A DNA stretch of 64,000 nucleotides from Paludibacteraceae bacterium (GCA_024401535.1 JAKSKX010000005.1:85558-149557), one strand, 5' to 3'; shown: positions 3,768 through 50,414, counted from the stretch's first letter. Numbers and translations: made by a program. Notes: generated from the sequence alone by a model not told the origin.

Positions 3768-4517
3768 ATGCAGTTAAGAAAAAATGCAAGAAATATTATC
3801 TTTGTAGCGCTCTTAGCTTTTATTGTTGCTTTGTTGTGCTTATTTTCGACTCGTTCCGGAGATACGACTTGCCGTAACACAGAGCCTGTCATAAAAGACA
3901 GCTTGAACGCACAGTTCGTTTCCAAGAAAGAGATAATGAGTTATTTGGACAGGTGCGAAATCAACCCTTACGGACAAAGTTTCAAGAATATAGACCTGAG
4001 ATGTATAGAAAAGAAACTTGAAAAACATCTTTTCATTAAGGAGGCTCAGTGCTATTTCTCCCCGAACGGAACAGTGAACGTAGAGATAAGGCAACGCAAA
4101 CCAGTACTAAGAGTTTCCAATGGCTCGGCAGGAGGGTTCTATATAGATAAGGAAGGTAAGAAGTTCCCTCTGTCAACTGCTTATGCCGCATACGTGCCGA
4201 TAGCTTCGGGTGAGTTCGATTTAACGGAGGATTATGTCAGAAAGAATCTTCTTGACTTTGTCGTTTATATAGATGACGACAAGTTCTGGAGAACTCAAAT
4301 TGAGCAGATTTATGTTCAGCGCAGTGGCGTAATAGAACTTATTCCGAGGGTGGGAGACAATGTTATCATTCTTGGAACTACAGAAAACTATAGGTCTAAA
4401 CTCAAGAAATTGAGGACTCTGTATGATGAGGCTTTCTCTAAGATCGGATGGAGCAAATATTCCAAGATTGACTTGAGATACAAAGGCCAGGTAGTGTGTA
4501 CGAAAAGAGGAGTATAA
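3768..4517 (+). CDS. ftsQ: Cell division protein FtsQ (single TM helix plus POTRA-like domain)
   Basis: 249 aa with an N-terminal TM helix (IIFVALLAFIVALLCLF). Size and position between murC and ftsA match FtsQ. Confidence 0.8.
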   Translation: MQLRKNARNIIFVALLAFIVALLCLFSTRSGDTTCRNTEPVIKDSLNAQFVSKKEIMSYLDRCEINPYGQSFKNIDLRCIEKKLEKHLFIKEAQCYFSPNGTVNVEIRQRKPVLRVSNGSAGGFYIDKEGKKFPLSTAYAAYVPIASGEFDLTEDYVRKNLLDFVVYIDDDKFWRTQIEQIYVQRSGVIELIPRVGDNVIILGTTENYRSKLKKLRTLYDEAFSKIGWSKYSKIDLRYKGQVVCTKRGV

Positions 4518-4544
4518 AAACAAAGAATAAAGAACTTATTTTTC

Positions 4545-5903
4545 ATGGGAGAAATAATCTCAAATATCTACACTAACCCCTACGAAAACCGAATAACTGT
4601 GACGGTGGATCTGTCTTCGTCTCAATTTCGTGCCGTGGCGGCTTTGGTTGATGAAAACGGAGGAGTCGAAAAGATTCTTGCTGTCGCGTCTGTTGCGTCT
4701 GCCGGTATGAGCAAAGGTTTCATATCAAATGCAGAGGAGGCAGGGAAGAAGCTCGATGAATTGAAAAAGAAGATTTCCTGCAGTTTGAGCAACCTGATCT
4801 TTAAGGACATGTTGCCAGGAGAACCAAAGCCAATTGTTGTAATTAGGGATTGCAAGGTGTCTCTTTCGGGAAATATCATAAGCAGACATATTTCCAAGTC
4901 TAGAAACCTTAATGGAGAGCGAATTTCTCAAGCTATTGTCGGTGACTTGTACGAGCAGGTGAAAAATACTCTTGCTTCAGAGAAGAATGACGTGTTCTCG
5001 ATAAATACGCTTGAGTACAATGTAGATGATGAGGATACAATGACTCCTGTTGGTGCGTGGGGTAACAATTTGATTTCCGGTAGATATCTTGTGCTTGAGT
5101 CTAAAGATATTGCAAGAGAGAATGCAAACTGGGCTTTGGGAAATGTTGACTCGACATTTGTCCTTAACAACGAAGCCTTGGCAGAGGTTGTTCTATCCGA
5201 TTATGACAAGGAGTGTGGATGTGTATTGCTTGATATGGGTTCTTGTACCACTACAGTTTCCGTATATCATAACAAATTGTTGCGTCATTATCGTGTACTT
5301 CCATTTGGCGGTAATGTCCTTACAAACGACATTAAGGAGGTTCTTGCTGTTTCCAGCGGACTTGCTGAAGAGTTGAAAAAGGCAATGGGCTTTGCTACTG
5401 CAAATGCGGATAGATGTAAAGGCTATGTATGTGTGCCGAAGGGAGAGCAGGGACTCACAGAAGAAAAAATGATAAATGTCAAGGAACTGGCTCGTATCAT
5501 AGAGGCTCGTGTTGAGGAATTCTTAGGATTCATTGAAGGAGAAGCCTGTGATGGAGGAGTTCCAAACAACTTCAAAATGATTCTTTCCGGAGGTGCTACA
5601 AAACTTAATAGGTTCAAGGACAAGGTCAAGTCTTTTACTGGCAGGGATGCAGAATTCGGCCAAATCAAACAGGAATATGTTGACAAGTACGGAAAGTATT
5701 TCAACAAAACAAACGAGATAAGTGATTTCTCTGTCTGTCTTGGTTTGCTGTCTGGCAAGTTTGTATCTTCTGTGTCTTTCGAAAAGGCGGCTAATGTAGT
5801 AGTTGAAAGACCTAAGCAGGGAAAGAAAAACAAGTTCAATGATTGGGGCAAGAAAATATATGACTTACTGATCAACGACGAAGACGAAACAAATAATGCA
5901 TAG
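4545..5903 (+). CDS. ftsA: Cell division protein FtsA (actin-fold), divergent nucleotide-binding motifs
   Basis: 452 aa. Alignable blocks: LLDMGSCTTTVSVY..LRHYRVLPFGGNVLTNDI (E. coli VVDIGGGTMDIAVY..IPYAGNVVTSDI) and ILSGGATKL (VLTGGAAQI). Lies between ftsQ and ftsZ. Confidence 0.8.
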   Translation: MGEIISNIYTNPYENRITVTVDLSSSQFRAVAALVDENGGVEKILAVASVASAGMSKGFISNAEEAGKKLDELKKKISCSLSNLIFKDMLPGEPKPIVVIRDCKVSLSGNIISRHISKSRNLNGERISQAIVGDLYEQVKNTLASEKNDVFSINTLEYNVDDEDTMTPVGAWGNNLISGRYLVLESKDIARENANWALGNVDSTFVLNNEALAEVVLSDYDKECGCVLLDMGSCTTTVSVYHNKLLRHYRVLPFGGNVLTNDIKEVLAVSSGLAEELKKAMGFATANADRCKGYVCVPKGEQGLTEEKMINVKELARIIEARVEEFLGFIEGEACDGGVPNNFKMILSGGATKLNRFKDKVKSFTGRDAEFGQIKQEYVDKYGKYFNKTNEISDFSVCLGLLSGKFVSSVSFEKAANVVVERPKQGKKNKFNDWGKKIYDLLINDEDETNNA

Positions 5904-5971: not shown

Positions 5972-7342
5972 ATGGCGAAACTAATCAGACCAATCATTCC
6001 AGACGCCCATAATAATCCTAACTCAGTTGAGAATAGGACAAAAATTAAGGCAATCGGTGTCGGTGGAGGTGGAGGTAATGCCGTTAACTATATGTATAAT
6101 GAGCATATTACCAACGTAGATTTCTTGATTGTCAATACTGACAAGCAGGCTTTGAGTAATAGCCCAATTCCCCAAAAAATTCAGTTAGGAGAGAAAGGAC
6201 TCGGTGCCGGAAACGACCCAGAGATGGGAAAGAGGGCTGCAGAGTTCTGTATAGATAAAATTAAAGAAAATTTAATCGATGGAACCAAAGTTGTGCTCGT
6301 AACTGCTTGCCTAGGAAAAGGTACCGGTACAGGTGCAGCTCCGGTAATAGCAGGAGTGGCAAAGGAAATGGGACTTCTGACAATCGGTATTGTTTCCATT
6401 CCTTTCCGTGCAGAAGGCCCTCGTCGTTTGACTCAGGCAATCAACGGACTTAAGGAGATGCGCAAGAATGTTGACTCAATCGTTGTCGTGACAAGCGAAC
6501 GCATCAAGGAAGAGTTCGGTGACTTTGCTGTTTCTGAGGCTTTCAATCAAGCAAATCGTGTGGCAGCCACTGCCGCTCAAGGTTTGGCTGACATGATATC
6601 TCAGCTTGGAATTCAAAACATCAGCATTACCGATGTTCGCAACATCATGGTGGACAGTGGTGATGCACTTCTAGGTATAGGTAAAGCATCCGGTATAGAT
6701 CGAGCTAAGTGCGCTCTTTCCGATGCCCTTGATTCTACGTTGCTGGCTAAACAGAACTTCAGTAAGGCAAAGCATATTATCCTTGACTTCTCTTTCTCTA
6801 CAGAGTATCAGGCTACAGAGCAGGAGGTTCTAGACATCAAGAACTATTTGCAGAGCAAGATTGATGAGCAGGCTGACATTGTCACTCAGATGCGTGTGGA
6901 TGAGTCCCTTGGCGATGCATTAAAGATTACTGTTATACTGGTAGGTCTTGAGATGACTGATGACGAGCTTGGATACAAGTCTGCAAACAAACTCATTGAA
7001 CAGCGCAACCGCCAGATGGAAGCGCAAAGAATAGAGGATGCCCAAACACAGAATTATTTGGGAGAGAATGTTACTTCCGCTAATATCAGCGCTCAGACAT
7101 CAGTTCCCAATACGCCTGCCGCAAATCCTGTGTTCAAACCCAGCAATCCCCAGCTTACCCAGGATCAGATAAACGAAATATATGGCGGACCAAGCGAACT
7201 TGATGCAAACAGTTCTTTCGGTCAGCAGCAACAGGAGGCAACTGCCCCAGTGGCAGAGACGGAGCCAGTGTCGACTCCAGAGGAAGAACCTGTAATGACT
7301 TGGGGTACATTTACTAATCTTGACAACGACAATAATCAGTAA
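5972..7342 (+). CDS. ftsZ: FtsZ paralogue 1 (tubulin-like GTPase)
   Basis: Motifs IKAIGVGGGGGNAVNYM, NTDKQAL, GLGAGNDPEMG and TACLGKGTGTGAAPVIAGVAKEMG, plus a Q/P-rich tail. ATG at 5972 (MAKLIRP) is preferred over the GTG at 5915, which overlaps the post-ftsA hairpin. Confidence 0.9.
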   Translation: MAKLIRPIIPDAHNNPNSVENRTKIKAIGVGGGGGNAVNYMYNEHITNVDFLIVNTDKQALSNSPIPQKIQLGEKGLGAGNDPEMGKRAAEFCIDKIKENLIDGTKVVLVTACLGKGTGTGAAPVIAGVAKEMGLLTIGIVSIPFRAEGPRRLTQAINGLKEMRKNVDSIVVVTSERIKEEFGDFAVSEAFNQANRVAATAAQGLADMISQLGIQNISITDVRNIMVDSGDALLGIGKASGIDRAKCALSDALDSTLLAKQNFSKAKHIILDFSFSTEYQATEQEVLDIKNYLQSKIDEQADIVTQMRVDESLGDALKITVILVGLEMTDDELGYKSANKLIEQRNRQMEAQRIEDAQTQNYLGENVTSANISAQTSVPNTPAANPVFKPSNPQLTQDQINEIYGGPSELDANSSFGQQQQEATAPVAETEPVSTPEEEPVMTWGTFTNLDNDNNQ

Positions 7343-7347
7343 TAGCT

Positions 7348-8829
7348 ATGGAAGAAATTTCTTTAAATATTCCCAATGCTCCTGAAGCTCCTATAATCAA
7401 GGTTATAGGTGTAGGTGGTGGCGGTTGCAATGCCGTTAAGAACATGAAGGAGCAAAATATTCAGGCAATAGACTATATGGCTATAAATACTGATGAGGCT
7501 GCCTTGGTGTATTGTGGTATCGAATGTTCTCTGCTTATCGGTGAGGACGGTAGCGGAACAGGTGGTGATGTAGAGTTGGGAAGAAAGCTTGCAGAAGAAG
7601 ATGCAGAGGCTATTCGCGAATATATCGGCAACCATGTGGAAATGGTATTTGTCACTGCATGTCTTGGAAAGGGTACAGGTACCGGTGCAGGTCCCGTGGT
7701 AGCCAAAATAGCCAAGGAAATGGGTATCCTTACAGTTGGAGTTGTTACACTTCCTAGCCGTATTGATGGAGCTATCGTGGCTGCCAAAGCTGCCGAGGGT
7801 CTTGAGGCATTCAAGCAGAGCGTTGACTCTTTGGTAATCATTGCAAACGAGCGCATTACCAAGATGTATCCTAACTTGGGTGTAGTGAGCTCAAAGAAAA
7901 AGGCTGACGAGATATTGACTTCTGCTGTGCGTGGAATTTCAGAGGTCATCACTTGCAAGGGATATGTCAATGTCGATATGAACGATGTCAAGACAACTTT
8001 GCGCAACAGTGGTGACGCCTTGTTCGGTACAGCTGTTGCAGAGGGCGAAAACAGAGCCTATGACGCTGTCCACGCTGCTGTTCAGTCTCCGCTTCTAATA
8101 AACAACAAGATCAGATGCGCCAAGTCATTCCTTCTTAATATTTCATATACAGACAAGGAGCCTACTATGGATGAACTTGGCTTGATTCTTGAAACTTTGA
8201 GCGAGGAGACTAACGAGGGAACAGACGCAATCTATGGATTTACAAAGGTTGAAGGCCTAGGCGAAAAACTTGGCGTGACCATCGTACTAACTGGTCAGGA
8301 TTTGAAGAAGGAGGAACTGGACGAAGCTCCTACACCTCAGGTCGTTGTCACTCAGCCCAAGAACCCTTATGACAGAGTTTTGGAGAATGAGCTTGTCAAA
8401 GCAGAACAAGACGAGACTTCGAAGATGATGGAGGAGATGCAGAGGAAACAGCAGGAACTTATGAAGCAGATGGCTGAACTTCAGGAAATGCAGAAGAAGT
8501 TTGCCGGCAATAGCGGTATGCCTTCCGGACAGCCACAGAATGCTTTTGCCAGCCAGCCGCAGGCATCGTACATTCAGCAGCCGGTGAGCCAGCCTGTCAA
8601 TGCAACCATAGAGATGCCGACTCAGCCTCAGCCAGCACCATTGCACGTGACACCAAAGAAGTTCGGAGAGAACGAGGCTGTGAACTCTACGCCTGCATTC
8701 CACCGTTTTGGCGGCGAGCAGACCAAGTATTCACAGTTCCCTAAGGAGTCATACTCTACGTTCACTTTCGATGGTTCGACAAATACAATCTCGAACAAGA
8801 ACAAGTATTTGACAGACAAGCCGGATTGA
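7348..8829 (+). CDS. FtsZ paralogue 2 (divergent FtsZ-like GTPase with long coiled-coil/Q-P-rich tail)
   Basis: Motifs IKVIGVGGGGCNAVKNM, NTDEAAL, TACLGKGTGTGAGPVVAKIAKEMG and T7 loop NVDMNDV. Starts 5 nt after the ftsZ-1 stop. Confidence 0.85.
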   Translation: MEEISLNIPNAPEAPIIKVIGVGGGGCNAVKNMKEQNIQAIDYMAINTDEAALVYCGIECSLLIGEDGSGTGGDVELGRKLAEEDAEAIREYIGNHVEMVFVTACLGKGTGTGAGPVVAKIAKEMGILTVGVVTLPSRIDGAIVAAKAAEGLEAFKQSVDSLVIIANERITKMYPNLGVVSSKKKADEILTSAVRGISEVITCKGYVNVDMNDVKTTLRNSGDALFGTAVAEGENRAYDAVHAAVQSPLLINNKIRCAKSFLLNISYTDKEPTMDELGLILETLSEETNEGTDAIYGFTKVEGLGEKLGVTIVLTGQDLKKEELDEAPTPQVVVTQPKNPYDRVLENELVKAEQDETSKMMEEMQRKQQELMKQMAELQEMQKKFAGNSGMPSGQPQNAFASQPQASYIQQPVSQPVNATIEMPTQPQPAPLHVTPKKFGENEAVNSTPAFHRFGGEQTKYSQFPKESYSTFTFDGSTNTISNKNKYLTDKPD

Positions 8830-9001: not shown

Positions 9002-9451
9002 ATGGCATTATTTGACATAATAAGCGAGGACATCAAGAAGGCTATGATTGCAAAAGACAAAGTAGCTCTTGAGGCATTGCGTGGCGTAAAGAAAGAGTTT
9101 CTAGAGGCAAAGACGGCAAAGGGCTCTACAGGTGAACTTACTGACGATGCAGCGTTGAAAATACTTCAGAAGATGGTGAAGCAGCGCAAGGAGTCCGCTC
9201 AGATTTTTACAGAGCAGAATCGTGCTGACTTGGCAGAGAACGAGCTTGCCGAGGCTTCTGTAATCGAGAAGTATCTTCCTGCTAAGCTTTCTGACGCTGA
9301 ACTTGAGGCTGCGATCAAGGAAATTATCGCAGAGGTGGGCGCTACTTCTGCAAAAGAAATGGGCAAGGTTATGGGCGTTGCATCTAAGAAATTGGCTGGA
9401 AAGGCTGACGGAAAGGAAATATCGGAGAAGGTTAAGTCTTTGCTAGCTTAA
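9002..9451 (+). CDS. GatB/YqeY domain-containing protein
   Basis: 149 aa. The N-terminus MALFDIISEDIKKAMIAKDK..LEALRGVK and the overall K/E/A-rich helical pattern are typical of the YqeY family. Confidence 0.8.
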   Translation: MALFDIISEDIKKAMIAKDKVALEALRGVKKEFLEAKTAKGSTGELTDDAALKILQKMVKQRKESAQIFTEQNRADLAENELAEASVIEKYLPAKLSDAELEAAIKEIIAEVGATSAKEMGKVMGVASKKLAGKADGKEISEKVKSLLA

Positions 9452-9480
9452 TTCCTTCCGCTGGAATATGCAGTTATATG

Positions 9481-9520
9481 AGTGTGGAGTAGTGGCTTTT
9501 TGCAGTCATTACTCTACACT
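9481..9520 (+). terminator. 16-bp stem hairpin downstream of the yqeY-like gene
   Basis: AGTGTGGAGTAGTGGC / GTCATTACTCTACACT with three G-U pairs, which form only in the plus-strand RNA. A weak U-run follows (cgttttt). Confidence 0.45.
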
Positions 9521-9590
9521 TGTAAATCGTTTTTGAGTGATTTTTGAGTTTTTCTTTGCAATAATCACTAAAAAATCAAAAAATAGTGTG

Positions 9591-20530: not shown

Positions 20531-23500
20531 ATGAGGAAATTTGTTGTAGCATTTATATTTTGCTTGTGCGCCTTTGTCGGTATGCATGCCGAGACTTTGT
20601 CTCCAGAAAAGAAATTCGACGGTAATATTGGTTTCATAACCGTAGGAAACACAAACCATAAGTTGGCTGGTGATGTCGTGCCTGGTGCTATTGATAGAGA
20701 TCGTTCAAAGGAGAATGGAGAAATAGTTCCCATCAATGTGGCAAATTTGTTCAGCGGCACAACAACCAATGCCAACTACGCTGAATTTGTTGTAGATATT
20801 CCCAAAGAGATAACATGTGAGGACGAGATAGAAATCTTGTATGCAAGCTTGTTTTGGGGCGGACGACATAAGACTTCAGGAAATGAAAGTGTAAGGATTA
20901 TGGTTACGGATTCTGTCGGCGACAAGATTGCAGGAATAAATGACAGTCTAGTAAGGACAGCTGCTGTAGATGTGCCGGTCAACGGTAAAAACAGAGGTGT
21001 CTATTCGTGTCATGCAGAAGTGACAAATTACATAAAAAAGGCTGTAAACGTAAATACTGATGATCGTCGATACCGTTTCTATGTGGCTGATTTGAACACT
21101 TCCAGTACAGAGGTTGGAAGTGGAGCAGAAATCGGTAAATTCAGCGGTTGGACCCTTAATATTGTCTATAAGCACAAGGGATTGCCTGAACGCTCAATTT
21201 ATATATTCCAGCCAAACATGATGGGTGACGTTTCCGGTACAGAAGGAGTTGAGGGAGGTGAAGGTCGTACAGATTTGTTTGTGAAATTAGGATTGGGTGA
21301 TAATTTTAAGGTTCTCAAAGATCAAGACATTAGCTTTGTTTCTACGTTCCTTGGTGCTTATCGTACAGAGGTAAAGGATAGAATTATTGCTAACGGTGAC
21401 AATAAGGGATCAATTAAAAGTCAAGATTTATTTGTAAGTCCAGGAACCGAGGGCAACTGCTTTGACAATACTATAAGCTATTCTTATGAGTTTGAAAGCG
21501 GATCCGTTAAATCTGAAGAAGCCTATACGCGTGGTTATGACCTGAAGGCAATATCGTCAAATTTGAATTCTTGTTTAGATACTGCCAACAGGACATTCAA
21601 TTTCTTTGTGGGACTATTGCCTGAGATCCATTTCTTTACTGACGCTGTATTGATGTTCGGACAGCCGGATATTCCCGGCGTAGTTGCTCAGGATGTTAGT
21701 CCTAGTAATGTCAAGCCGAACGAGTCATTCAATTATTCGCTTTTTGTTGGTCTGCACCAGAATACCGAGCAGCTTGACAATATCAATGTTCGTATTCCTT
21801 TGACAGAATACGTGGACTATGTCGAGGATGTAAAGTTGAAGATTGTTGATGCTCAGGGGGAGTCGTACTATGTCAAGCTAGTGAATAAAATGGACATGTC
21901 GCTCGAATGGAAGGATAGAGAGTACAGGATATTGGCAAATAGCGTTAGTTTTACAAGTAATTCCAAGACTACATGGTCTAAGGACAATAAGTCTGACAGA
22001 GAAAATCTTTTCAATCCGGCACTTAGAAATGCCATGTTCGTGACTGACAGTCTTAATTTGGTTGCATTCCTTGATGATCCTCTGTCTGTAAAACAAAGGG
22101 TGTTGAAGATTTCTTTCGATTCAATTCGTTCGCTTGGAGTTGACGATGATCATGCCATAGAGATAGAGTTGACTCTTCATTCCAAGTCAGAGACAGACTG
22201 GGCATATCAGAAGAACCACCTTTTGGCAAACAGAGAACTTCCTATGCTTCAGCAGAGCGAAGTGACATTCCATACACCTTCGGACAGAAATTCTGTGCTC
22301 CAGAGCATGGACACAGATAACAAGTATAATAAAAAAGGTAAATTCGACTGGTCAACCTATATATGTGACCAGAAAGGCCGTGGCGGTATAGGCGCCGGCG
22401 GTGGTGGAGATCTTGATTTAGGCGGAGGAGGCAATGGCCGTTGCGAAAAGAGCGGCTATACAAGGGAAGATGCGGCAAAAGGCGGTGTCTTTACAAAAGA
22501 TACTACCCACGTCAGTATCAACGTCAAGCCTAATGGGGAATTCTGTCCAAAGTTCACTCTTCCCGATGCGCTTGAATTTAGCTTCTGCGAGAATACAGAG
22601 GTTTCAGCTGCCGGCATCAAGGAAATCTTGAAAGTAAGATATAGGGCCGATTTGGATTCACTTGCCAAGCGTGATTCGTTGATATGGCTTGAAGCAAAGC
22701 AGGCAATGGTCTATGACTATATCAAGAAGTACGGTGTTACTCGCCAGGAGATGGAGGGCCTTGTCAACTTTAACAGCGTAAGTGCAACGACAGATAGAAT
22801 TGTAAACCTTTCTTCGTGTGGTGCCGGCACCCCTGTATATGACAGAGGTCTTGACAGCATCATGAACATGAAGATTGAGTACTCGGACATCTTCTTGTTC
22901 TATAATTCACCTGCAGTCGGAGATTTGTATGACACTCCTAAGGATTCAGTATCTTTGCGCAAGTTGAGAGGAGACGGAAAGAGCTGGGTGTTCACTGACT
23001 CCCTTGACCTGTACATGTACTACAAGTCTCCTTGGGATAATGGTGCCTGCAACAAGTTTATACCTGTCAAGATCAGATCGTTCAAGAACAATGCTCCTGT
23101 AGTTCAGTACGGAGGTTCAACACTGCCTGCAAAGGGAGATACAACTATTCGTGTATGTCTTGACTCAAATCTTGACCCATTCAAGGTAATCAAGCAGAGC
23201 GCTACACATGACATCTACGTCTCTATTGACGGAGGTGAATCAAAGCCAATAAATGTTGATCCGGTAAAAGAGTTCGACTGGATATTAAAGGAGTCTGAAC
23301 TTGACACAAAGCAGAGCGGAACCAAGAAGTTCATAGTGTATGGCAAGGATATGGACTGCTATACTGACACGCTGCACTTTAGCATCACTGTAAGTGAAAC
23401 TAAGATTACAGAAGTTCCTGAAATAGCAAGAATCGAGGGCGACGAGTTGAATGGTGACGTCCAAATGATAAAGATTTGTAAGAGCAGAGAGGAACTTGAC

Positions 23501-26500
23501 TCTCTTACCATTAACCTTCTTGATCCTATTCCAAGTTACGAAGCGGTTTGGACTGCCAAGACAGACACTTCACTTGTGGCTTTAGGAAAGGGTAACTCAA
23601 TCAATGTTCAAAAGGATGTTGTGGGTACTACATATTACTCTGTAGTGTATGCTAATGATGATTGTGTAGGAGACTTGAAGGATGAAATCAGAGTGGAGAT
23701 TCTTCCTTTGCCGGACACATTAAGCCCTGACACATTCGCAATATGCTATAACTACGAGCTCACATCAACCGACTTGAGCAATGCGGCACAGAGAAGTGTT
23801 GTACAGAGCGGCGTGACTCTTTCGTACTATGACAACCTTGCAAAGGCGGAGGCTAACCAGCCGACTGAAGTCGAGGATATGGCTAAGTCTCTTAACAGAG
23901 ATGTCTTGAATAGCGGTTACACACCTTACTATGTCAGAGTTTATGACAATAACGAATGTTATAGCGTTCCTACTCGCAACGAGATCAAGAGAAACCAGTT
24001 CGATTTGACTGCGCCTAAGTTCCCTGTCGATGTCAAGGGCGTACTCGTGGATTCTGCATTGGTTTGTCTAGGAGCACAGCCTAAGGAAAACCTTAACGAG
24101 TATTTGAGCGAGGAAGAAACAGCTAAGGTGGATGGTGCTGTCAAACAGCCTAAATGGATGTGGGTTCACAGCATATCGAACATTCCTGAATATACTCCTA
24201 CTTCAACATTATACAGTAATGTCAGAGATTCGTATTCCTCGTACCTTGACGGAACAGCGGCAGGACACGATACAATGTATGTTGTCAGAGTGGATTCCAA
24301 CAGCTGTATAAGCGAGCCGAAGCAGTTCAGACTTCATGTGGATTCAAATATCACAACTTTGCCGTATGTGGATGATCCTTTGATGCCGCGCAACGGGTTG
24401 AGCCGTCTTGATTTGAACTATTGCCAGTACAAGGAGAAGTACAAGTCAGGATACATTCCTGCATGGGGAACGGAGCCAGGCTATATTGTCGAGTGGTATA
24501 AGGTTGACAGCCTTACTCAATTTGTCGAGGATACTGTGGTGACAAAACCTTTCGCAGAGATTTCATTCGATTATCCGGACACTTTGCTATACAAGGTTAG
24601 ACAAAGTACTGCGTTGGGCTGTCATGGAAAGTGGCTGCCAGTCAGGGCAATGATTCATCCTGCGGTAACACTGACTCCGGAGGTGGATATGATAGAACTT
24701 TGTAAGGGAGCAGACCCTGTCGAAGTAGTCGTGAAAAACAAACCTGAGAACAAGGGTCTTTCCACATTCTTTGTAGAGGATGGTAAAGATAATGATGTTG
24801 AAAATTATCTTCTTAAACTCTATGTAAATGCTGATGAGGCCACACCAGAGGACCAGGAACCCGTTGTAAACGGATATGTCCTGTTCAAGAGCTCGACTAC
24901 TGGATGTACAAGTGATTCTACCCCAATCAAGTCGCGAATCCATGAGCTTCCTAAGAAGCCTGTTTCTGAATTCAAGACTAAAAATTTCTGTTTGGAGAGC
25001 GGCGATATAGATTTGGTTGATTTGTTCAAAGTGGAAACTGTAGCCGAAGATGTGAACTATAATTCAAACTCGTTGGTCTGGTCTTCTGTCCTAAGCCGTG
25101 AGCCGAAAGTCGATCCAACCGGAATACTTAGTTCATCAACTGCTTTGAGCAACTTCTTGGTTTCTGTAAAGCAGTATGATAACGAGACTGGTTGCGAGGG
25201 AGATACTATCAATTTGAGAATCAATGTTGACTCAACATTCTCTTATGTCCATTTCGATACAACTTTGTGCTACGGCCAGACTATGGAGTTGTGCCTTGAG
25301 GTGGCAAAGAGAATCAAACATAAGAAGAACTCTTATGTAACTTCCGATATAGATTTCAATGTCTATCCTTTGTCCGGAAACACTCCATCCCTTACACCTC
25401 TAGGCAAGAGTGACAAGGTCAAGTCTCCATACGAGCGTCACGAGAGCAAGCTGCAGAGATACTTGGTCAAGATTTGGGAAAAGGAGAGCGGTTGCGAGAT
25501 TGAGGACACACTAAGTCTTGAGTTCCGCGGTTTGCCTGTTGTCGAGATAAAGAACAGCATAGACACATGCAGCATGGCAGATTTCGTACTGCCAATTGTT
25601 ACAGAAAGAGCAGAGGACATTGTCGAGTGGTATCGTGAGGACAGCACACCGCACAGCGGCAGGAACATGTCTTTGGACAAGAGCGAGAAGCCATACGTGA
25701 TTGTTACTGACGAGTATGCTTGTAAGGATACTGCAACACTTGACGTAATAATTCATGTAAATCCTTTGAAGCCTTTGGTAAGTGATGCTGTTATATGTCA
25801 GCATTCCGGTATTGTAAACTTGAAGATGGACAACAATGTCGATCCTAGTTCAGAAAATACAGCAGCCAAGTTGAAACTTCTGGTTTACAACTATGACGAG
25901 ATGGAGAAAGGAAAGGAGGTCGATGCTTATGTGAATACAGACAAACTTGACTTTACATCCTCTGTCAAATCTTTGAAGTATATTGTACGCCAGGAGAACA
26001 TGCTTACTACATGTTTTGATACTGCGCATATCAATGTTACCGTACGCAGAAAGTACACACCAGAGATTCCTGACTTCGGCCCTACATGCAAGGATCAGGT
26101 GTTTGATATGGGCAAGTATGTTAACAATTATGTTTCAACAGAGCGTGCTTCCATTGGTATTGCCAATCTGTCAACCATTACACTTTCTTATGCTGACATG
26201 AACGGAGAGTTGAGCGAGGCGCAGACTGGAGCCATAGTTCGCCAGTTGGACTCGGACACTACTCTTTACTCGTTCAAGATTACTGACAACGACAAGGTAT
26301 GTGAAGTTGCCGACACGTTCATGGTAATCATAAATGAGATTCCTTCAGCTCCAATGATAGAGGAAGGTCAGGATTCTGTATTCCTTTGTGGTAATGGAGT
26401 TGCTCCGCTTGAGGTAAGCGCCAAGCCAACAAATAGCGATGCTACAAATCTTGATATCTGGTGGAGGGTGAACGGAACCGACTACAAGAGCGACACATAT

Positions 26501-29500
26501 ACTCTCGGCTCCGAGGTTAGCAAAGCCACATTAAAGTCTTATGTCAAGAACTCAAAGACTGGTTGCGAAAGTGACCTTAGCGAGATTGTTGCGACTGTAG
26601 TTCCTGTAATGGCTGCGAAGACTCTTGATTCGCTTATATTATGTGCAGGCGAAGAAGTGAATGTGTTCGAATATTTGAAGAAGTCGTTTGTTTACACTCC
26701 TGCATACACCTCGCGTATTGGATACAAGGTTACAGAGAACGGTATGCTTGTCAAAAACATAAGCGAGCTGACTAAGGCAAAGAAGACTGCCCATACTGTC
26801 AACAATTACGAGATAGAGATGATGGACACATTGACCGGATGTTCCGCCAAGAATACATTTAGAGTGGTTTGGGAGGATGCGGTCAACAATTCAATCTTGG
26901 CAAAGAATATTGCCTGTCAGGGTGATGACGCATCTTTAGTTGCTGTTGGCGAGTCAAGACCTCATACATTGAAGTGGGTAATCGACGGCGAACTTGTCGG
27001 AACAGAAAAGCAGTTGGATATAACTTCCTTGACAAAGACAACTGAAGTTAAGTTGATTACAAACATTTCGGGAACAGAGTGTAGTGACACCTTGACTCAT
27101 ACATTGACTGTATATGACACGCCTGAGAAGTTGGAGGATGTACCGACATTCAGATTCTGTCAGGCTAACGAAAGCCATGACATAACTTTGAATCATTCGG
27201 AGTATGAGATAGAGTGGACAAACGCAAGAGACGAGGTGAATGTTACTGAGTTCTATCCAGTGTCTGCTTCAAAGGATACTGCATTCGTTCTTCAGGCTAG
27301 ACTTATAAATAATGTCACTACTGGCAAGCTAGGAATGGATACAGTTTGTAGATCCACTCCAATAGATGTGAATGTTGAGGTTGTCAAGCATATAAATGTC
27401 TCATTGGCAGATACTAATGTTTGTGTTCCAAGCACATATAACCTTATGAAGGCAGTTCAACAGCCGGATCTGTCGTTGAAGGTTTACTCGATATCTCCAA
27501 AGGTTGAGGATTCGTTGGCTGTTAGCAAGTCTGCTCTTTACACCATCACGTACGAGGACAAGTGGCATTGCCAGACTTCCGCAACTACTGATGTCAGATT
27601 TATCAGCAAGCCGGATTCAGTAATCATAGCAAAGAACGGATTCAATATGTGTCTTGGCTCTGAAACTGTTGTCAAGCCGGTTGTCAGCGCTGGTCAGTAC
27701 GTTATCGAATGGACAAATACAAGAGACAAATCAAAGTTGATAAGCGACACTCTTGCCATATCGGCCGACAAGGAATCCGTATCTCCAATTATGTATGATG
27801 TTGTCAGAGTGGATACTATCTACGGTTGTCGAAGCGTTACAACACCATTCTCTTACAATGTAATGCCGAAGATATCAATCAATCCATATTCGGATCAGCA
27901 CGTCTGCGATTACGAGACTTTGGACATAGATTCGTTGTCCAAGTCAATATTCAATAACTTTGATGATCTTGAGGTTACAAACAAGGCACGCAAGGTTACT
28001 GATGACAAGACAAGTCTCTTGTTCTCTGCTGTCAATCCAGTATCTACATGTACTGCAGAGGTTTCTCTTGACATAATCACTCACCAGAGTCCAAAATTCT
28101 CGGTTACAGGAAATCATCCTGCTTGTCAGGGCGACACAGTCGTTCTAGAGGCAGTTGGCAGTGACCAATATTTCTGGGGTTATGAAGGCAATACAAACCG
28201 CGCCGCAAAATCTTTTGCAGTCACTAGCAAGGAGAACCAGGATGTGAATGTTGACCTTCGTGTTAAGTTGTTTGCACCTATAGATGGTGACAACAAGTAC
28301 TGTTATGCAGATACTTCAATAACAGTGTCATTTGCTAAGGTTCCTGAACTTGTTGGTGGCAAACTTGATACTGCTTATTGCCAGAACACTTTGATAAATG
28401 AGTTGCCGGAGATTGTTGCTACAGATCCAGCAGCAAGTATAGTATGGTATTCATATGCTGACAACTATACTGAGCCTTATGTTATCAAGTCATTGGATGA
28501 GGTTGCTGCTAGCAGCGGAGATTTCAACTACAAGTTCAAGCAGGTTCTAGGTATATGTTCAACAAAGCTTCAGAACTACACAATCAGGATTCAGCCTAGG
28601 ATTGAGGATGCTCCTGTTCTTCGAGATACAGTATATTGTATAGATGCTGATCCATTGCTGTTGTCTAAATCAGACTATAACAATCCATTGGTATCTTCTA
28701 TGTATGACTTGGAGTGGAGTGACAAAGAGGAGGTTGTTGTAGATGGAACAGCTCTTCCTTTGACTAATGAAGTAGGTGCAAAGATGTATTATGCGCGCTA
28801 TACTAAGGGCGTATGTAAGGGAGACGCTTCTACGATTGTTGTCAAGGTTGAGCCTCATTATCAGGACATGCCTTTGGTTGATGAACTTCAGAAGTTCTGC
28901 CCTAAAACAGGAACTTATGATTTGACGGCGAAGACAACAAACTCTTCTGCAAGACTTAATTGGTACTATGAGTTCAGTAACCAGCGTATGGACAACATAA
29001 CTATAGATACTGACCAGCCAAATTGGACAACTGCAACATACAAGGTTACTCAGTCCGTTCTTGACGGATGTGAGAGTATGCCAGCAGTGTTTACAGTCCA
29101 GTTGAAGAAGCCAGTGGCAGGAAGAGACACTTTGATAAAGAATATGTGCCTTGGCGACAAGTTCAGTATCGAGGAACTATTTGAAGAGTTGTCTGTAAGC
29201 GAGGTTATTGATGAAGTTAAGGATGACAAGAACAACATAATCGACCATATTATAGCAAGTGACGGTACTTACCATGTTGATGTGCATAACGAGGACGAAT
29301 GTAAGGCTCAGTTCAACGTGGCAGTCAAGACTTGGAGTGTTGGAGCCCCTATAGTTGAGGAACCTAAGGAACAGTATTGTGCCGGAGACAAAGTTCACGT
29401 TAGTGTAGTTGCTCCGAACGAAGTTGACTATCGTTGGTACAGCCAGAACGAGGACAAGATTGTAGGGTATGTTTCCACTATCAATACTGTGGCTGGAACT

Positions 29501-30331
29501 GAATCCGACTCGTTGTTCTTGACAATGAGTGTAAAGGGACATCCGGAGTGTCAGAGTGAGCTTAAATTCGAAATCAATGTTGCACCAAAGATGGAGTTTG
29601 ATATTGTAGGAGACACAGCAATATGTGCAGGCAACGAATTCAGCCTTTCTGCAACAAACATCACTAACAAGAGTTGGATGATGTTTGACACTTTGTTCGT
29701 GACTGAAACATTCGTATATGCTCCTTCTAAGAGCGGCTATGTCACTGCACTTGGAATTGACAAGTATGGATGTAATACACAGAAGTCCGTTCTTGTGAAT
29801 GTTTACGAGAGTCCTAAGCCTTCGATCCTTGTAGGCGATACAGTGGACCATCCTAATTTCGATCTTGATCGCGATGACAGGGATATCAGTTTCGAGGCTA
29901 TTGTCAATGCAGACGAAACAGCTGAGTTGGTTTATTACTGGGAGGTTGGTGATGGAAATATTTACGACGCCAAGTCTTTCACTCACGAGTATGAGTATGA
30001 CTTCGTGGATATGATCAAGCCTATACCTGTCAAACTTCGTGTCTATTACGAGTTTGATGAACACTGTATGGGTAATGCAACTGCAATACTCCGTGTAAAT
30101 CCTGATTTTGAGGTACCTAACACTATGGGAGCTGATGACCATTTTATGCCTAACTACAACTTGCAGATATTTGACCGTGTTGGCAATTTGATTTTTGAAG
30201 GCAGGGATGGATGGAAGGGCCAGGATATGGACGGACGTGAAGTGTTCGGAGACACTTATTTCTATGCAATCACGTACTTTATAGATGGCAAGAAGTATGT
30301 CAAGAACGGATACATTACCTTGGTTCGTTAA
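20531..30331 (+). CDS. Giant (3266 aa) T9SS-secreted cell-surface adhesin-like protein: N-terminal head, Gly-rich linker, about 25 Cys-pair Ig-like modules, PKD-like domain, type B CTD
   Basis: Signal peptide MRKFVVAFIFCLCAFVGMHA and one uninterrupted 9.8-kb ORF. Recurrent ~88-aa modules with 'xxCxG/xxC...' at the start and 'GC....v.V' at the end. YYWEVGDG...THEY is a PKD-like motif. The C-terminus matches the gliding-motility/T9SS type B sorting domain. Confidence 0.9.
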   Translation: MRKFVVAFIFCLCAFVGMHAETLSPEKKFDGNIGFITVGNTNHKLAGDVVPGAIDRDRSKENGEIVPINVANLFSGTTTNANYAEFVVDIPKEITCEDEIEILYASLFWGGRHKTSGNESVRIMVTDSVGDKIAGINDSLVRTAAVDVPVNGKNRGVYSCHAEVTNYIKKAVNVNTDDRRYRFYVADLNTSSTEVGSGAEIGKFSGWTLNIVYKHKGLPERSIYIFQPNMMGDVSGTEGVEGGEGRTDLFVKLGLGDNFKVLKDQDISFVSTFLGAYRTEVKDRIIANGDNKGSIKSQDLFVSPGTEGNCFDNTISYSYEFESGSVKSEEAYTRGYDLKAISSNLNSCLDTANRTFNFFVGLLPEIHFFTDAVLMFGQPDIPGVVAQDVSPSNVKPNESFNYSLFVGLHQNTEQLDNINVRIPLTEYVDYVEDVKLKIVDAQGESYYVKLVNKMDMSLEWKDREYRILANSVSFTSNSKTTWSKDNKSDRENLFNPALRNAMFVTDSLNLVAFLDDPLSVKQRVLKISFDSIRSLGVDDDHAIEIELTLHSKSETDWAYQKNHLLANRELPMLQQSEVTFHTPSDRNSVLQSMDTDNKYNKKGKFDWSTYICDQKGRGGIGAGGGGDLDLGGGGNGRCEKSGYTREDAAKGGVFTKDTTHVSINVKPNGEFCPKFTLPDALEFSFCENTEVSAAGIKEILKVRYRADLDSLAKRDSLIWLEAKQAMVYDYIKKYGVTRQEMEGLVNFNSVSATTDRIVNLSSCGAGTPVYDRGLDSIMNMKIEYSDIFLFYNSPAVGDLYDTPKDSVSLRKLRGDGKSWVFTDSLDLYMYYKSPWDNGACNKFIPVKIRSFKNNAPVVQYGGSTLPAKGDTTIRVCLDSNLDPFKVIKQSATHDIYVSIDGGESKPINVDPVKEFDWILKESELDTKQSGTKKFIVYGKDMDCYTDTLHFSITVSETKITEVPEIARIEGDELNGDVQMIKICKSREELDSLTINLLDPIPSYEAVWTAKTDTSLVALGKGNSINVQKDVVGTTYYSVVYANDDCVGDLKDEIRVEILPLPDTLSPDTFAICYNYELTSTDLSNAAQRSVVQSGVTLSYYDNLAKAEANQPTEVEDMAKSLNRDVLNSGYTPYYVRVYDNNECYSVPTRNEIKRNQFDLTAPKFPVDVKGVLVDSALVCLGAQPKENLNEYLSEEETAKVDGAVKQPKWMWVHSISNIPEYTPTSTLYSNVRDSYSSYLDGTAAGHDTMYVVRVDSNSCISEPKQFRLHVDSNITTLPYVDDPLMPRNGLSRLDLNYCQYKEKYKSGYIPAWGTEPGYIVEWYKVDSLTQFVEDTVVTKPFAEISFDYPDTLLYKVRQSTALGCHGKWLPVRAMIHPAVTLTPEVDMIELCKGADPVEVVVKNKPENKGLSTFFVEDGKDNDVENYLLKLYVNADEATPEDQEPVVNGYVLFKSSTTGCTSDSTPIKSRIHELPKKPVSEFKTKNFCLESGDIDLVDLFKVETVAEDVNYNSNSLVWSSVLSREPKVDPTGILSSSTALSNFLVSVKQYDNETGCEGDTINLRINVDSTFSYVHFDTTLCYGQTMELCLEVAKRIKHKKNSYVTSDIDFNVYPLSGNTPSLTPLGKSDKVKSPYERHESKLQRYLVKIWEKESGCEIEDTLSLEFRGLPVVEIKNSIDTCSMADFVLPIVTERAEDIVEWYREDSTPHSGRNMSLDKSEKPYVIVTDEYACKDTATLDVIIHVNPLKPLVSDAVICQHSGIVNLKMDNNVDPSSENTAAKLKLLVYNYDEMEKGKEVDAYVNTDKLDFTSSVKSLKYIVRQENMLTTCFDTAHINVTVRRKYTPEIPDFGPTCKDQVFDMGKYVNNYVSTERASIGIANLSTITLSYADMNGELSEAQTGAIVRQLDSDTTLYSFKITDNDKVCEVADTFMVIINEIPSAPMIEEGQDSVFLCGNGVAPLEVSAKPTNSDATNLDIWWRVNGTDYKSDTYTLGSEVSKATLKSYVKNSKTGCESDLSEIVATVVPVMAAKTLDSLILCAGEEVNVFEYLKKSFVYTPAYTSRIGYKVTENGMLVKNISELTKAKKTAHTVNNYEIEMMDTLTGCSAKNTFRVVWEDAVNNSILAKNIACQGDDASLVAVGESRPHTLKWVIDGELVGTEKQLDITSLTKTTEVKLITNISGTECSDTLTHTLTVYDTPEKLEDVPTFRFCQANESHDITLNHSEYEIEWTNARDEVNVTEFYPVSASKDTAFVLQARLINNVTTGKLGMDTVCRSTPIDVNVEVVKHINVSLADTNVCVPSTYNLMKAVQQPDLSLKVYSISPKVEDSLAVSKSALYTITYEDKWHCQTSATTDVRFISKPDSVIIAKNGFNMCLGSETVVKPVVSAGQYVIEWTNTRDKSKLISDTLAISADKESVSPIMYDVVRVDTIYGCRSVTTPFSYNVMPKISINPYSDQHVCDYETLDIDSLSKSIFNNFDDLEVTNKARKVTDDKTSLLFSAVNPVSTCTAEVSLDIITHQSPKFSVTGNHPACQGDTVVLEAVGSDQYFWGYEGNTNRAAKSFAVTSKENQDVNVDLRVKLFAPIDGDNKYCYADTSITVSFAKVPELVGGKLDTAYCQNTLINELPEIVATDPAASIVWYSYADNYTEPYVIKSLDEVAASSGDFNYKFKQVLGICSTKLQNYTIRIQPRIEDAPVLRDTVYCIDADPLLLSKSDYNNPLVSSMYDLEWSDKEEVVVDGTALPLTNEVGAKMYYARYTKGVCKGDASTIVVKVEPHYQDMPLVDELQKFCPKTGTYDLTAKTTNSSARLNWYYEFSNQRMDNITIDTDQPNWTTATYKVTQSVLDGCESMPAVFTVQLKKPVAGRDTLIKNMCLGDKFSIEELFEELSVSEVIDEVKDDKNNIIDHIIASDGTYHVDVHNEDECKAQFNVAVKTWSVGAPIVEEPKEQYCAGDKVHVSVVAPNEVDYRWYSQNEDKIVGYVSTINTVAGTESDSLFLTMSVKGHPECQSELKFEINVAPKMEFDIVGDTAICAGNEFSLSATNITNKSWMMFDTLFVTETFVYAPSKSGYVTALGIDKYGCNTQKSVLVNVYESPKPSILVGDTVDHPNFDLDRDDRDISFEAIVNADETAELVYYWEVGDGNIYDAKSFTHEYEYDFVDMIKPIPVKLRVYYEFDEHCMGNATAILRVNPDFEVPNTMGADDHFMPNYNLQIFDRVGNLIFEGRDGWKGQDMDGREVFGDTYFYAITYFIDGKKYVKNGYITLVR
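23150..29810 (+). repeat. Protein-level array of about 25 diverged ~88-aa modules, each with a conserved cysteine pair
   Basis: Module pairs read from the translation include VCLDSN..MDCYTD, KICKSR..DDCVGD, AICYNY..NECYSV, VCLGAQ..SNSCIS and so on to AICAGNEF..KYGCNTQ. The modules are not similar at the DNA level. Confidence 0.7.
30113..30328 (+). other. T9SS type B (gliding-motility-associated) C-terminal sorting domain of the giant protein
   Basis: VPNTMGADDHFMPNYNLQIFDRVGNLIFEGRDGWKGQDMDGREVFGDTYFYAITYFIDGKKYVKNGYITLVR fits the pattern (I/V)PN.F.P..D..N..F......L.IF.R.G..(I/V)FE...GWDG...G......G.Y.Y.......G....G.(I/V)TL(I/V)R. Confidence 0.8.
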
Positions 30332-30372
30332 AATTGACTTTTAGCTAATAGAACATTAAATTAGAAATATCA

Positions 30373-50022: not shown

Positions 50023-50414
50023 GTCTTGTTTGGTTACAAATGCAACTTTTTTGTGGAAAATGAAGTCGTGTGCGAAAGCCGTAAAAACGTAGTGCGTCCA
50101 AAAAATAAAGAAAAATTTTGCTCCCCGAACTTCTGACTTTAAATATAAATGGTTGATTTCAATGGGGATTGTATTGGTGAGTGGTATTTGCGGTATTTCT
50201 TTGCTTCAGGAGAGCAGAAATAAAAAATGAAGGTGAAATTTTGCTCGCAGAATTATAGCCATGAATTTTGACGGTAAAAATAGAAGCCTGCTCTTTCTTT
50301 GTCGAATCTACATTATTATTTTTGGGGTAGCATGAAGGGTGATACAAAAAAAGAAGGAAGCCTCTCGACTTCCAATCTTCCAACCTTAAATCTAATACCA
50401 TGAAAAACACGATG

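Follow-up and report, generated by a model that had tools for sequence, protein, structure and literature searches.

Nearly all bacteria divide with a single FtsZ, and its GTPase site lies between identical subunits. We know of no bacterial FtsZ that works as an obligate asymmetric heterodimer, and evolutionary biology has yet to explain how such a homopolymer gave rise to the obligate, asymmetric heterodimer of alpha- and beta-tubulin. An uncultured gut bacterium of the Paludibacteraceae encodes two different FtsZs, here called A and B, side by side in its division and cell wall (dcw) cluster. The sequence examined, referred to as the window, is a 64-kb stretch (64,000 nt; GCA_024401535.1, JAKSKX010000005.1:85558-149557) of its metagenome-assembled genome (MAG). 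An earlier note on this DNA had pointed to the pair and to a Lys in the tubulin signature of both proteins. Is either copy equipped to form a GTP-hydrolyzing filament by itself, or could the two complete each other? Judged from conserved residues, the distinctive trait of the pair is complementary catalytic loss; the Lys alone is ordinary.

Two FtsZ genes 5 nt apart

The tandem pair of FtsZ-fold proteins is real. Open reading frames (ORFs), Pfam domains and AlphaFold2 folds all agree with the initial reading of two full-length proteins directly after ftsA, separated by 5 nt.

5972 to 7342, plus strand: ftsZ-A, 456 amino acids, ATG at 5972 and TAA at 7340-7342; intact nucleotide pocket, T7 loop without the catalytic Asp, non-canonical tail
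7348 to 8829, plus strand: ftsZ-B, 493 amino acids, ATG at 7348; intact T7 loop, canonical C-terminal motifs, heavily altered nucleotide pocket
7340 to 7347, plus strand: A/B junction, TAA, an in-frame TAG and CT, followed by the ATG of B (TAA TAGCT ATG); 5-nt gap

Both proteins match the Pfam Tubulin and FtsZ_C domains (A: PF00091 3.5e-37 and PF12327 2.1e-13; B: PF00091 4.4e-35 and PF12327 1.5e-12). By BLASTP they are 36% identical over 298 amino acids (E 1e-61) with unrelated tails, in line with the 35-45% core identity first estimated by eye. The AlphaFold2 cores are confident and superpose on the FtsZs of E. coli, K. pneumoniae, S. aureus and M. tuberculosis with template modeling (TM) scores of 0.90-0.94 (Foldseek), and A and B are 38-42% identical to solved FtsZs. 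The dcw position directly 3' of ftsA is also that of an FtsZ. Both fall marginally under the TIGR00065 equivalog cut-off of 295.2 bits (A 286.8, B 293.0), and neither has the strict T4 signature GGGTG(T/S)G, both reading GKGTGTG. The strict motif is unreliable as a criterion for FtsZ because GKG is fixed in many bona fide single-copy FtsZs. A is identical to the database protein P0001, named "cell division FtsZ family protein" by NCBI, and B to P0121, named "cell division protein FtsZ", each from a Paludibacteraceae MAG. Equivalog thresholds currently leave one of the two genes named merely a family protein.

Two more species encode this pair, peculiar residues and junction included: a sister species (L001/L002; GCA_045641625.1 and a Logan contig) at 88-89% amino acid identity and a third species (L166; Logan SRR17543912) at 81-84%. 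The window, L001 and L166 share one junction sequence, CAGTAATAGCTATGG. As pair, motifs and junction recur in independent assemblies of two related species, the pair is not an assembly artifact. An assembly duplicate or chimera was likewise rejected, since NCBI, Logan and GTDB each hold the same pair in an assembly of separate sample origin.

Complementary departures in the two cores

To place the unusual residues of A and B, 397 and then 502 FtsZs were aligned, and the 82 columns conserved at 93% or more in the background were taken as near-invariant. Residues carry E. coli (Ec) numbers, from a reference sequence. These numbers agree with alignments to PDB entries and with the numbering of S. 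aureus (Sa = Ec + 1; PMC8936486). The median FtsZ departs from consensus at none of the 82 columns, A at 16 and B at 11, and the sets of A and B overlap only at M104L. The departures of B cluster almost entirely in the N-terminal GTP-binding domain. Those of A include the T7 loop and the C-terminal activating domain (D209S, T215N, P247T, G295Q, T313V), with M97V and F99L. The relevant features of A are:

6305 to 6337, plus strand: T4 tubulin-signature loop ACLGKGTGTGA; Lys116, codon aaa at 6317-6319, equivalent to E. coli G106
6617 to 6634, plus strand: T7 synergy loop NISITD; Ser218 (6623-6625) for the catalytic Asp (Ec D209 = Sa D210), the Ec D212 equivalent kept
7283 to 7339, plus strand: C-terminal peptide EEPVMTWGTFTNLDNDNNQ; lineage-specific and conserved, in place of the Bacteroidota PAYxR...FLHDNVD motifs

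The Ec D209 column has Asp in 500 of the 502 FtsZs; Ser occurs only in A of the window and of L001. L166, outside this alignment, likewise reads NISITD in its A, and a T7 loop without the catalytic acidic residue, a tubulin-like character, is found in A of all three species (D209S). At Ec D212 all 502 FtsZs have Asp. The nucleotide pocket of A is complete, with Arg142, Gln47, a canonical T3 loop and Phe182. Its C-terminal peptide is identical in L001 and nearly so in L166 despite a diverged linker; A has neither a DIPAFLR-type nor a FLHDNVD-like motif, and its extreme end is WGTFTNLDNDNNQ. A canonical Bacteroidota FtsZ tail consists of PAYxR (the DIPAFLR counterpart), ...S.F.[IV]... and N.FLHDNVD. 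An ending of the form ...[FY]L..N[VP]D is present in 173 of 236 Bacteroidota FtsZ matches; the module is retained in B copies and has been supplanted in A copies.

The features of B are:

7408 to 7434, plus strand: T1 loop GVGGGGCNA; Cys27 for Gly
7486 to 7500, plus strand: T2, NTDEA; Ala at the equivalent of Ec Q47 (Sa Q48)
7549 to 7572, plus strand: T3 loop GSGTGGDV, compared with GLGAG(A/N)(N/D)P; A70T and P74V
7657 to 7689, plus strand: T4 loop ACLGKGTGTGA; Lys108, codon aag at 7669-7671
7753 to 7779, plus strand: T5/H5, PSRIDGAIV; F135S and E138D, with Val144 (7777-7779) at Ec R142 (Sa R143)
7894 to 7896, plus strand: Lys183, at the guanine-stacking aromatic position Ec F182 (H7)
7969 to 7986, plus strand: T7 loop NVDMND; intact, both Asp present
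8689 to 8826, plus strand: C-terminal module of canonical Bacteroidota type; TPAFHRF (counterpart of DIPAFLR), STFTFDGSTNTIS and the terminal NKYLTDKPD

B is the mirror image of A, with a complete T7 loop and a pocket that lacks Arg142, Gln47 and Phe182 and in which the T1, T3 and T5 loops are rewritten. Position 182 is Phe or Tyr in 495 of the 502 FtsZs, and Lys, Gln or Arg only in the three B copies of this lineage. Val at P74 is found in three of the 502, all of them B copies of this lineage. Gln47 is replaced in most B-type copies examined and A197S is common to all B copies.

Two further features lie outside the cores. A small beta-hairpin is predicted in B at 473-482 (AlphaFold2; predicted local distance difference test, pLDDT, about 80). 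The linkers of both proteins have predicted helices, a long one in A at 6977-7057 and one of ~42 residues in B at 8383-8508, rich in Glu, Lys, Gln and Met (ENELVKAEQ...MQKKFAG; pLDDT about 76-86). Helices are unusual for the normally disordered FtsZ linker, and these could serve lateral or pairwise association.

Other tandem pairs in related bacteria (types I, III and IV, below) have one copy with a near-canonical core, with 0-2 departures. In the lineage of the window alone, the canonical copy too has lost a catalytic residue. By this comparison of residues, complementary decay of the two cores is confined to the three-species lineage.

Subunit interfaces of a proposed A/B filament

In the S. 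aureus FtsZ filament, the nucleotide pocket of each bottom subunit receives the T7 loop of the top subunit (PMC8936486). The catalytic residue of that loop, Sa D210 (Ec D209), positions the attacking water by a swinging motion; in the mutant D210N, assembly is lost and T3 of the bottom subunit is rearranged. Sa R143 (Ec R142) of the bottom subunit is arginine-finger-like; R143Q is inactive for both assembly and hydrolysis and R143K is 6-fold slower, while Q48A lowers GTPase activity about 6-fold (PMC8936486). Four interfaces can be formed from A and B, named with the top subunit first:

A on A: T7 catalytic Asp missing; bottom pocket complete
A on B: T7 catalytic Asp missing; pocket without Arg142, Gln47 and Phe182, T3 altered
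B on B: T7 catalytic Asp present; pocket without Arg142, Gln47 and Phe182, T3 altered
B on A: T7 catalytic Asp present; bottom pocket complete

From the effects of the S. aureus mutants, A-A, B-B and A-on-B would therefore each be short of an essential element and only B-on-A would be complete.

The interfaces bear on whether A and B form two separate homopolymers with successive roles, like archaeal FtsZ1 in ring assembly and FtsZ2 in constriction. Haloferax provides the precedent (10.1101/2020.06.04.133736), and the distinct C-terminal peptides of A and B imply distinct partners. We consider two homopolymers improbable, however. An A-A filament would be without the catalytic Asp, whose substitution in S. 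aureus prevents assembly (PMC8936486); a B-B filament would be without Arg142. A and B depart from consensus in complementary, not parallel, ways, and the tight, conserved junction suggests coupled expression.

The reading we prefer, and hold at about even probability, is that A and B form an obligate co-polymer with one catalytic and one non-catalytic interface and with B as the tether. A and B would be synthesized together from a single transcript and would polymerize jointly in head-to-tail order. The T7 loop of B on the pocket of A would bring together all catalytic elements and hydrolyze the GTP bound to A. The T7 loop of A on the pocket of B, without the catalytic Asp and the arginine-finger-like Arg, would hold a structural or slow-turnover nucleotide, like the N-site of tubulin. 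The canonical C-terminal peptide of B would tether the co-polymer to FtsA and the membrane, and the new C-terminal peptide of A would recruit another partner. The uniquely changed faces, the T7 side of A and the T3/T5 side of B, would meet at A-on-B, suggesting a co-evolved non-catalytic contact.

The same losses could instead mean that B, which has the canonical tail and an intact T7 loop, is the main FtsZ and by itself the scaffold of the Z-ring while A caps, destabilizes or tunes B filaments, with no alternating polymer. A defective T7 loop combined with a good pocket is the expected look of a filament-end capper. There are precedents for modulators in plastid FtsZ1, which restrains FtsZ2 (PMC8142252), and in the truncated paralogues of the Hyphomicrobiales (10.1101/2025.09.29.679267), and types I, III and IV each pair one near-canonical core with one divergent core. 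In the window, however, neither core is canonical. With Arg142, Gln47 and Phe182 lost from its pocket, a B-only filament should hydrolyze GTP poorly and could not treadmill (PMC8936486). Moreover, the canonical core in the other pair types is that of the first copy, not the second. A modulator role for A is thus possible but unlikely.

Gene context and selection

The pair lies in the plus-strand gene order partial ftsW, murG, murC, ftsQ, ftsA, ftsZ-A, ftsZ-B, yqeY. Its immediate neighbors are:

4545 to 5903, plus strand: ftsA, 452 amino acids, Pfam FtsA/SHS2_FTSA; directly 5' of the pair
9002 to 9451, plus strand: yqeY, GatB/YqeY domain; conserved 3' neighbor of the pair

No terminator-like site was found between ftsZ-A and ftsZ-B; the first is a strong hairpin with a T-run 3' of yqeY (9477-9524). 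A sigma-70 promoter scan gave only background-level scores, the consensus not applying to Bacteroidota promoters. The conserved junction and the terminator-free gap suggest that A and B are expressed jointly from one transcript. GC content and GC content at third codon positions (GC3) of the pair are like those of the neighboring genes. There is no sign of horizontal acquisition, either in GC and GC3 or in the trees, where A and B nest within Bacteroidales FtsZ.

Compared with L001, at a synonymous divergence (dS) of about 0.8-0.9, A has a ratio of nonsynonymous to synonymous divergence (dN/dS) of 0.080 and B one of 0.075, with 0.053 and 0.058 for the respective cores. The corresponding values are 0.072 for ftsA, 0.049 for ftsQ, 0.019 for murG and 0.003 for yqeY. 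With dN/dS near 0.08, both ftsZ genes are under purifying selection, in a module that evolves rather fast at the protein level. The ftsQ and ftsA genes (window 3768-5903) are close to both ftsZ genes in this respect (0.05-0.07), and murG, murC and yqeY lie at 0.003-0.02. The whole late-division module may be co-evolving.

These values also bear on whether one or both copies are decaying, with the cell dividing by means of a third, canonical ftsZ elsewhere or without FtsZ altogether. Both proteins are just under the TIGR00065 cut-off, have long branches and have lost invariant residues, and the view of the genome is limited to 64 kb. However, the reading frames are intact and the cores have a dN/dS of about 0.05-0.06 at a dS of about 0.8. 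The odd residues are identical in three species from independent samples, and both genes occupy the dcw slot. No third FtsZ-like ORF is encoded within the 64-kb window. The GTDB assembly of the sister species likewise gave no second match to the T3 motif described below, in a scan that covers one motif type only. We regard decay as highly improbable.

Elsewhere in the window, 50343-50410 (minus strand) matches the Rfam FopS small RNA family of Bacteroidetes (RF04319; 68.8 bits, gathering score 56). A 3266-amino-acid ORF at 20531-31374 has Ig-like and CHU_C type IX secretion signal domains and is followed by a PorP/SprF gene, ordinary type IX secretion cargo for Bacteroidota.

Tandem ftsZ pairs in other Bacteroidales

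To determine how common such pairs are, GTDB species representatives were scanned for the T3 motif of the clade, G[EDK]KGLGAG..P.[MVI]G, in fixed 8-kb blocks, some of which cut a pair. Among the 32 stretches returned, two are Actinomycetota FtsZs and 30, on 29 contigs, are from Paludibacteraceae/Bacteroidales MAGs, largely from horse feces and rumen. A pair is encoded on 19 of the 29 contigs and a clear single ftsZ on two, and eight loci are severed by a block or contig end. Pairs are thus present in 19 of the 21 decidable GTDB species of uncultured Paludibacteraceae/Bacteroidales. The order ftsA-ftsZ-ftsZ-yqeY is also found in lineages L005, L010, L011 and L013 (from the context of database matches), and the synteny ftsW-murG-murC-ftsQ-ftsA-ftsZ-ftsZ-yqeY is common to related loci. 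Together with the metagenomes that carry pairs, this leaves the novelty the earlier note had claimed for a tandem pair in a Bacteroidota dcw cluster unsupported in the form given there. Four types can be told apart:

Type I, 10 species including Ca. Scybalocola fimicaballi: A1 with AAMGGG, a PEPEP-rich linker and the end ...REIDLNSIDDDDD; B1 with ATLGGG and the end ...YLSNRPD
Type II, one GTDB species, the type of the window: both copies with ACLGKG
Type III, 5 species: copy 1 with GGG and a canonical tail; copy 2 a short GKG protein
Type IV, 3 species and L011, including Ca. Physcocola equi: A2 with GGG and a novel tail; B2 with GKG and the end ...FLDNNVD

Junctions in the other types are 1-nt gaps or 8-nt overlaps. 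The type III loci (L016, L019, L023, L027 and L031, all GTDB Paludibacteraceae MAGs) have T1 GVGGCGGNA in copy 1; copy 2, of about 377 amino acids, has T1 ..GNVV and ends right after the PAYxR motif.

Three JGI metagenome contigs (L057:5510-8226, L134 and L161) carry a further kind of pair, from a Bacteroidota lineage without the 3-amino-acid T3 deletion of the clade. Copy 1 has GGG and the end ...FKELFEDDDQKM; copy 2 combines T1 GGGGCNA with GKG, the T1 Cys and T4 Lys combination of B in the window, and has a canonical ...FLHDVVD tail. A lone FtsZ-like gene of about 419 amino acids (L012:5001-6260, ENA ERZ28634237; P0103-P0118) lies outside a dcw cluster, near DarT, Fic and unknown genes. It has T1 GGGGCNA, a T7 loop without Asn207 (GGIKSDFRD), a PEPEPP linker and an amphipathic C-terminus, TKLKGWLEKVMKSV, that resembles a membrane-targeting helix built into the protein. 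The gene may encode an accessory FtsZ or belong to a mobile element. P0357 (840 amino acids), unrelated to the lineage of the window, contains two FtsZ cores, each complete and with GGGTGSG, and terminates in IPEFLRRR of the plastid type. It looks eukaryotic-algal and is either a natural two-domain fusion or a merged gene model.

How old is the pair in the window? Neighbor-joining (NJ) trees were built from MAFFT alignments with Kimura distances and 100 bootstraps, the background samples being biased. A and B of the window were sisters in 1 and 0 of 100 bootstraps in two trees, and B joined other B copies in 91 of 100 (50 with B1, 41 with B2). A recent private duplication was rejected on this ground and also because tails and indels match the A- and B-type copies of other lineages. 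A and A1 share T6 VD.IVV[VI][ST][ST][ED]R (Asn165 lost), an extra residue in S[YF]S-[ST]E[HY], and NYMY..HI. B and B1 share an N-terminal ..IPN, SY[TS]-DK, VEGLG[DE]KL, TGQ[SD]L and the ...PD ending. Nodes joining A1, A2, A of the window and type III have less than 40% support, and NJ does not settle the placement of A. The type III copies are sisters in 75 of 100 bootstraps and are probably an independent duplication in which the roles of the tails are reversed. Types I, II and IV probably descend from one duplication that predates their divergence. Trees and synteny indicate an old tandem duplication within the dcw cluster, common to most of this clade of uncultured gut and rumen Paludibacteraceae. 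Both copies nest within Bacteroidales FtsZ and do not share the cyanobacterial/plastid duplication; on this placement the duplication is independent of plastid FtsZ1/FtsZ2. That A and B are old paralogues, as first proposed, is borne out by the independent assemblies, the 36% identity and the bootstraps that separate them.

The Lys in the T4 loop

The Lys of A and B stands opposite the second Gly of GGGTGTG (E. coli G106, S. aureus G107) in phmmer alignments to solved FtsZs, which are ungapped through T4. These structure-linked alignments put it where the earlier note had, and the codons, aaa at 6317-6319 and aag at 7669-7671, are as read there. The motif is also conserved at the protein level, over three species and with a dN/dS of about 0.08 for both genes.

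The note had further taken a Lys in this loop for a novelty, which does not hold as put there. Among the nearest database relatives, 11 of 236 read GKG, and three of the 11, from other Bacteroidales lineages (L003, L006 and L008), are the sole dcw ftsZ of their locus. A metagenome scan for A..[MLF]GKGTGTG[AG].P returned at least 120 loci, with an FtsZ ORF at 119 of the 120 listed. The listed loci are of lake, sediment, hot-spring, termite-gut and rumen origin, with tails from proteobacterial, FDIPAFLRKQAD, to archaeal-looking, and an ftsA-like gene lies just 5' in at least 51 of the 75 listed loci with enough upstream sequence. The best 120 relatives of one lake FtsZ (down to 79% identity) belong to Burkholderiaceae and without exception read GKG; Quisquiliibacterium transsilvanicum and a Limnobacter MAG are among them. 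At 30% distance there are at least 35 GKG clusters. Among 149 newly returned 50%-identity representatives nearest to A, GKG makes up ~3% (5 of 147 signature motifs). As GKG occurs in many ordinary single-copy FtsZs, the Lys cannot distinguish the pair, and its candidacy as a feature unique to the pair was dropped. It is a widespread, recurrent T4 variant, tolerated and probably functional rather than a defect.

A and B of the window both read ACLGK in T4, compared with AAMGGG in A1, ATLGGG in B1 and AG[ML]GKG in B2. Given the sister lineages (AAMGGG in A, ATLGGG in B), ACLGK is not ancestral to the pair. Since three adjacent amino acid changes in A reproduce the string of B, an old, short gene conversion from B to A appears most likely, parallel change or selection being the alternative. 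A test at synonymous sites was uninformative, dS between species being about 0.8-0.9 and the copies differing at most synonymous sites. The earlier argument that recent conversion or sequencing error cannot account for the motif stands as regards conservation in three species, but an old, short conversion or parallel change is the simplest account.

The Lys could still matter if its charge, placed at the phosphates by T4, replaces Arg142 and makes the pair unusual. In the 502-FtsZ alignment, FtsZs with Gly106 have Arg at position 142 in 233 cases and Lys in 27, and those with Lys106 have Arg in 34, Lys in 176 and another residue in 31. The K106/R142 association holds for clusters at 30% distance (31/9 versus 14/21, Fisher p = 0.002), and in one shallow clade the two positions switch together, four GKG members all having Lys142 and 17 GGG members all having Arg142. 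However, the association is gone at 40% (p = 0.27), the GGG background is taxonomically biased and A keeps Arg142 beside its Lys. We therefore consider a functional novelty of this kind somewhat unlikely.

Discussion

Several points weigh against an obligate A/B co-polymer. Co-assembly is read from residue patterns only. A keeps the second T7 Asp (D212), and its Ser might still hold a water, so the T7 loop of A may be impaired but not inactive. The residue lost in A (D209) differs from that lost in beta-tubulin (the D212 counterpart), which makes the parallel with tubulin one of logic, not homology. In the other pair types the near-canonical copy could work alone, and pairing itself then needs no obligate co-polymer. 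The deep NJ nodes are weak (17-35% for A1 with A, 32-50% for B1 with B), and the single-duplication scenario leans partly on hand-picked shared characters. With 64 kb in view, the genome also has room for a third, canonical ftsZ elsewhere.

Beta-tubulin combines a non-catalytic T7 loop with a hydrolyzable pocket, and alpha-tubulin a catalytic T7 loop with a non-hydrolyzed pocket. Within the same superfamily fold, A would resemble beta and B alpha in alpha/beta-tubulin or BtubA/BtubB. Unlike the tubulins, A and B are FtsZ by sequence, with FtsZ_C, and their heterodimer is putative, proposed from residue patterns. A broader proposal takes the lineage to be in transition to, or past, an obligate tubulin-like heterodimer, with the sister types I, III and IV as earlier stages of one duplication and the T4 Lys as a relocated charge that makes up for the lost Arg142. 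In it, A would bind the GTP to be hydrolyzed without being able to activate its hydrolysis, and B would be the activator while holding a structural nucleotide that stays intact. We advance it tentatively and think it somewhat unlikely as a whole.

Plastid FtsZ1/FtsZ2 (FtsZB/FtsZA) is similar in that two diverged paralogues are kept, one of which (FtsZ2; here B) retains the C-terminal tether peptide, and the plastid proteins co-assemble into heteropolymers (PMC8142252). The plastid genes, however, are nuclear-encoded and non-adjacent and both active sites are complete, whereas here the genes are 5 nt apart in the dcw cluster and the losses are complementary. Archaea with FtsZ1 and FtsZ2 also house a pair of FtsZ families per cell, and normal division requires each of them in a distinct role (10.1101/2020.06.04.133736). 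Unlike the pair here, they date to a duplication at the archaeal ancestor, are not in tandem and use SepF as anchor, and complementary catalytic loss is unreported. The truncated paralogues of the alphaproteobacterial Hyphomicrobiales and second copies elsewhere, such as those in Bipolaricaulota, are retained, lineage-specific ftsZ duplications as well (10.1101/2025.09.29.679267; PMC9871819), but they are reported to be truncated or outside the dcw cluster; here both copies are full-length, adjacent and in the dcw cluster, and neither is canonical. Extra bacterial ftsZ copies lie outside the dcw cluster according to one survey (PMC9871819), and a preprint counts "at least five independent duplications" of ftsZ with Bacteroidota unmentioned (10.1101/2025.09.29.679267). 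The single-copy GKG FtsZs of Burkholderiaceae and several Bacteroidales share the Lys at the second T4 Gly with A and B; unlike them, each is the sole dcw FtsZ, has an intact T7 loop and is named "cell division protein FtsZ" by NCBI. Neither GKGTGTG as a protein motif nor tandem ftsZ in Bacteroidota was found in the literature searched, the coverage of which is incomplete. The claim that pair and Lys had not been described may hold for the literature but fails for sequence databases.

For annotation by motif it matters that the textbook GGGTG(S/T)G is not invariant, GKGTGTG being fixed in whole clades. For the biology of the family, these gut and rumen bacteria offer a graded series, from a single FtsZ, through pairs of a canonical and a divergent copy, to one lineage with complementary losses. 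As all of these are ordinary soluble proteins with the FtsZ fold, amenable to expression and in vitro assay, the idea is directly testable even though the bacteria are uncultured. If true, it would make the family a natural series replaying how the asymmetry of alpha/beta-tubulin could have evolved.

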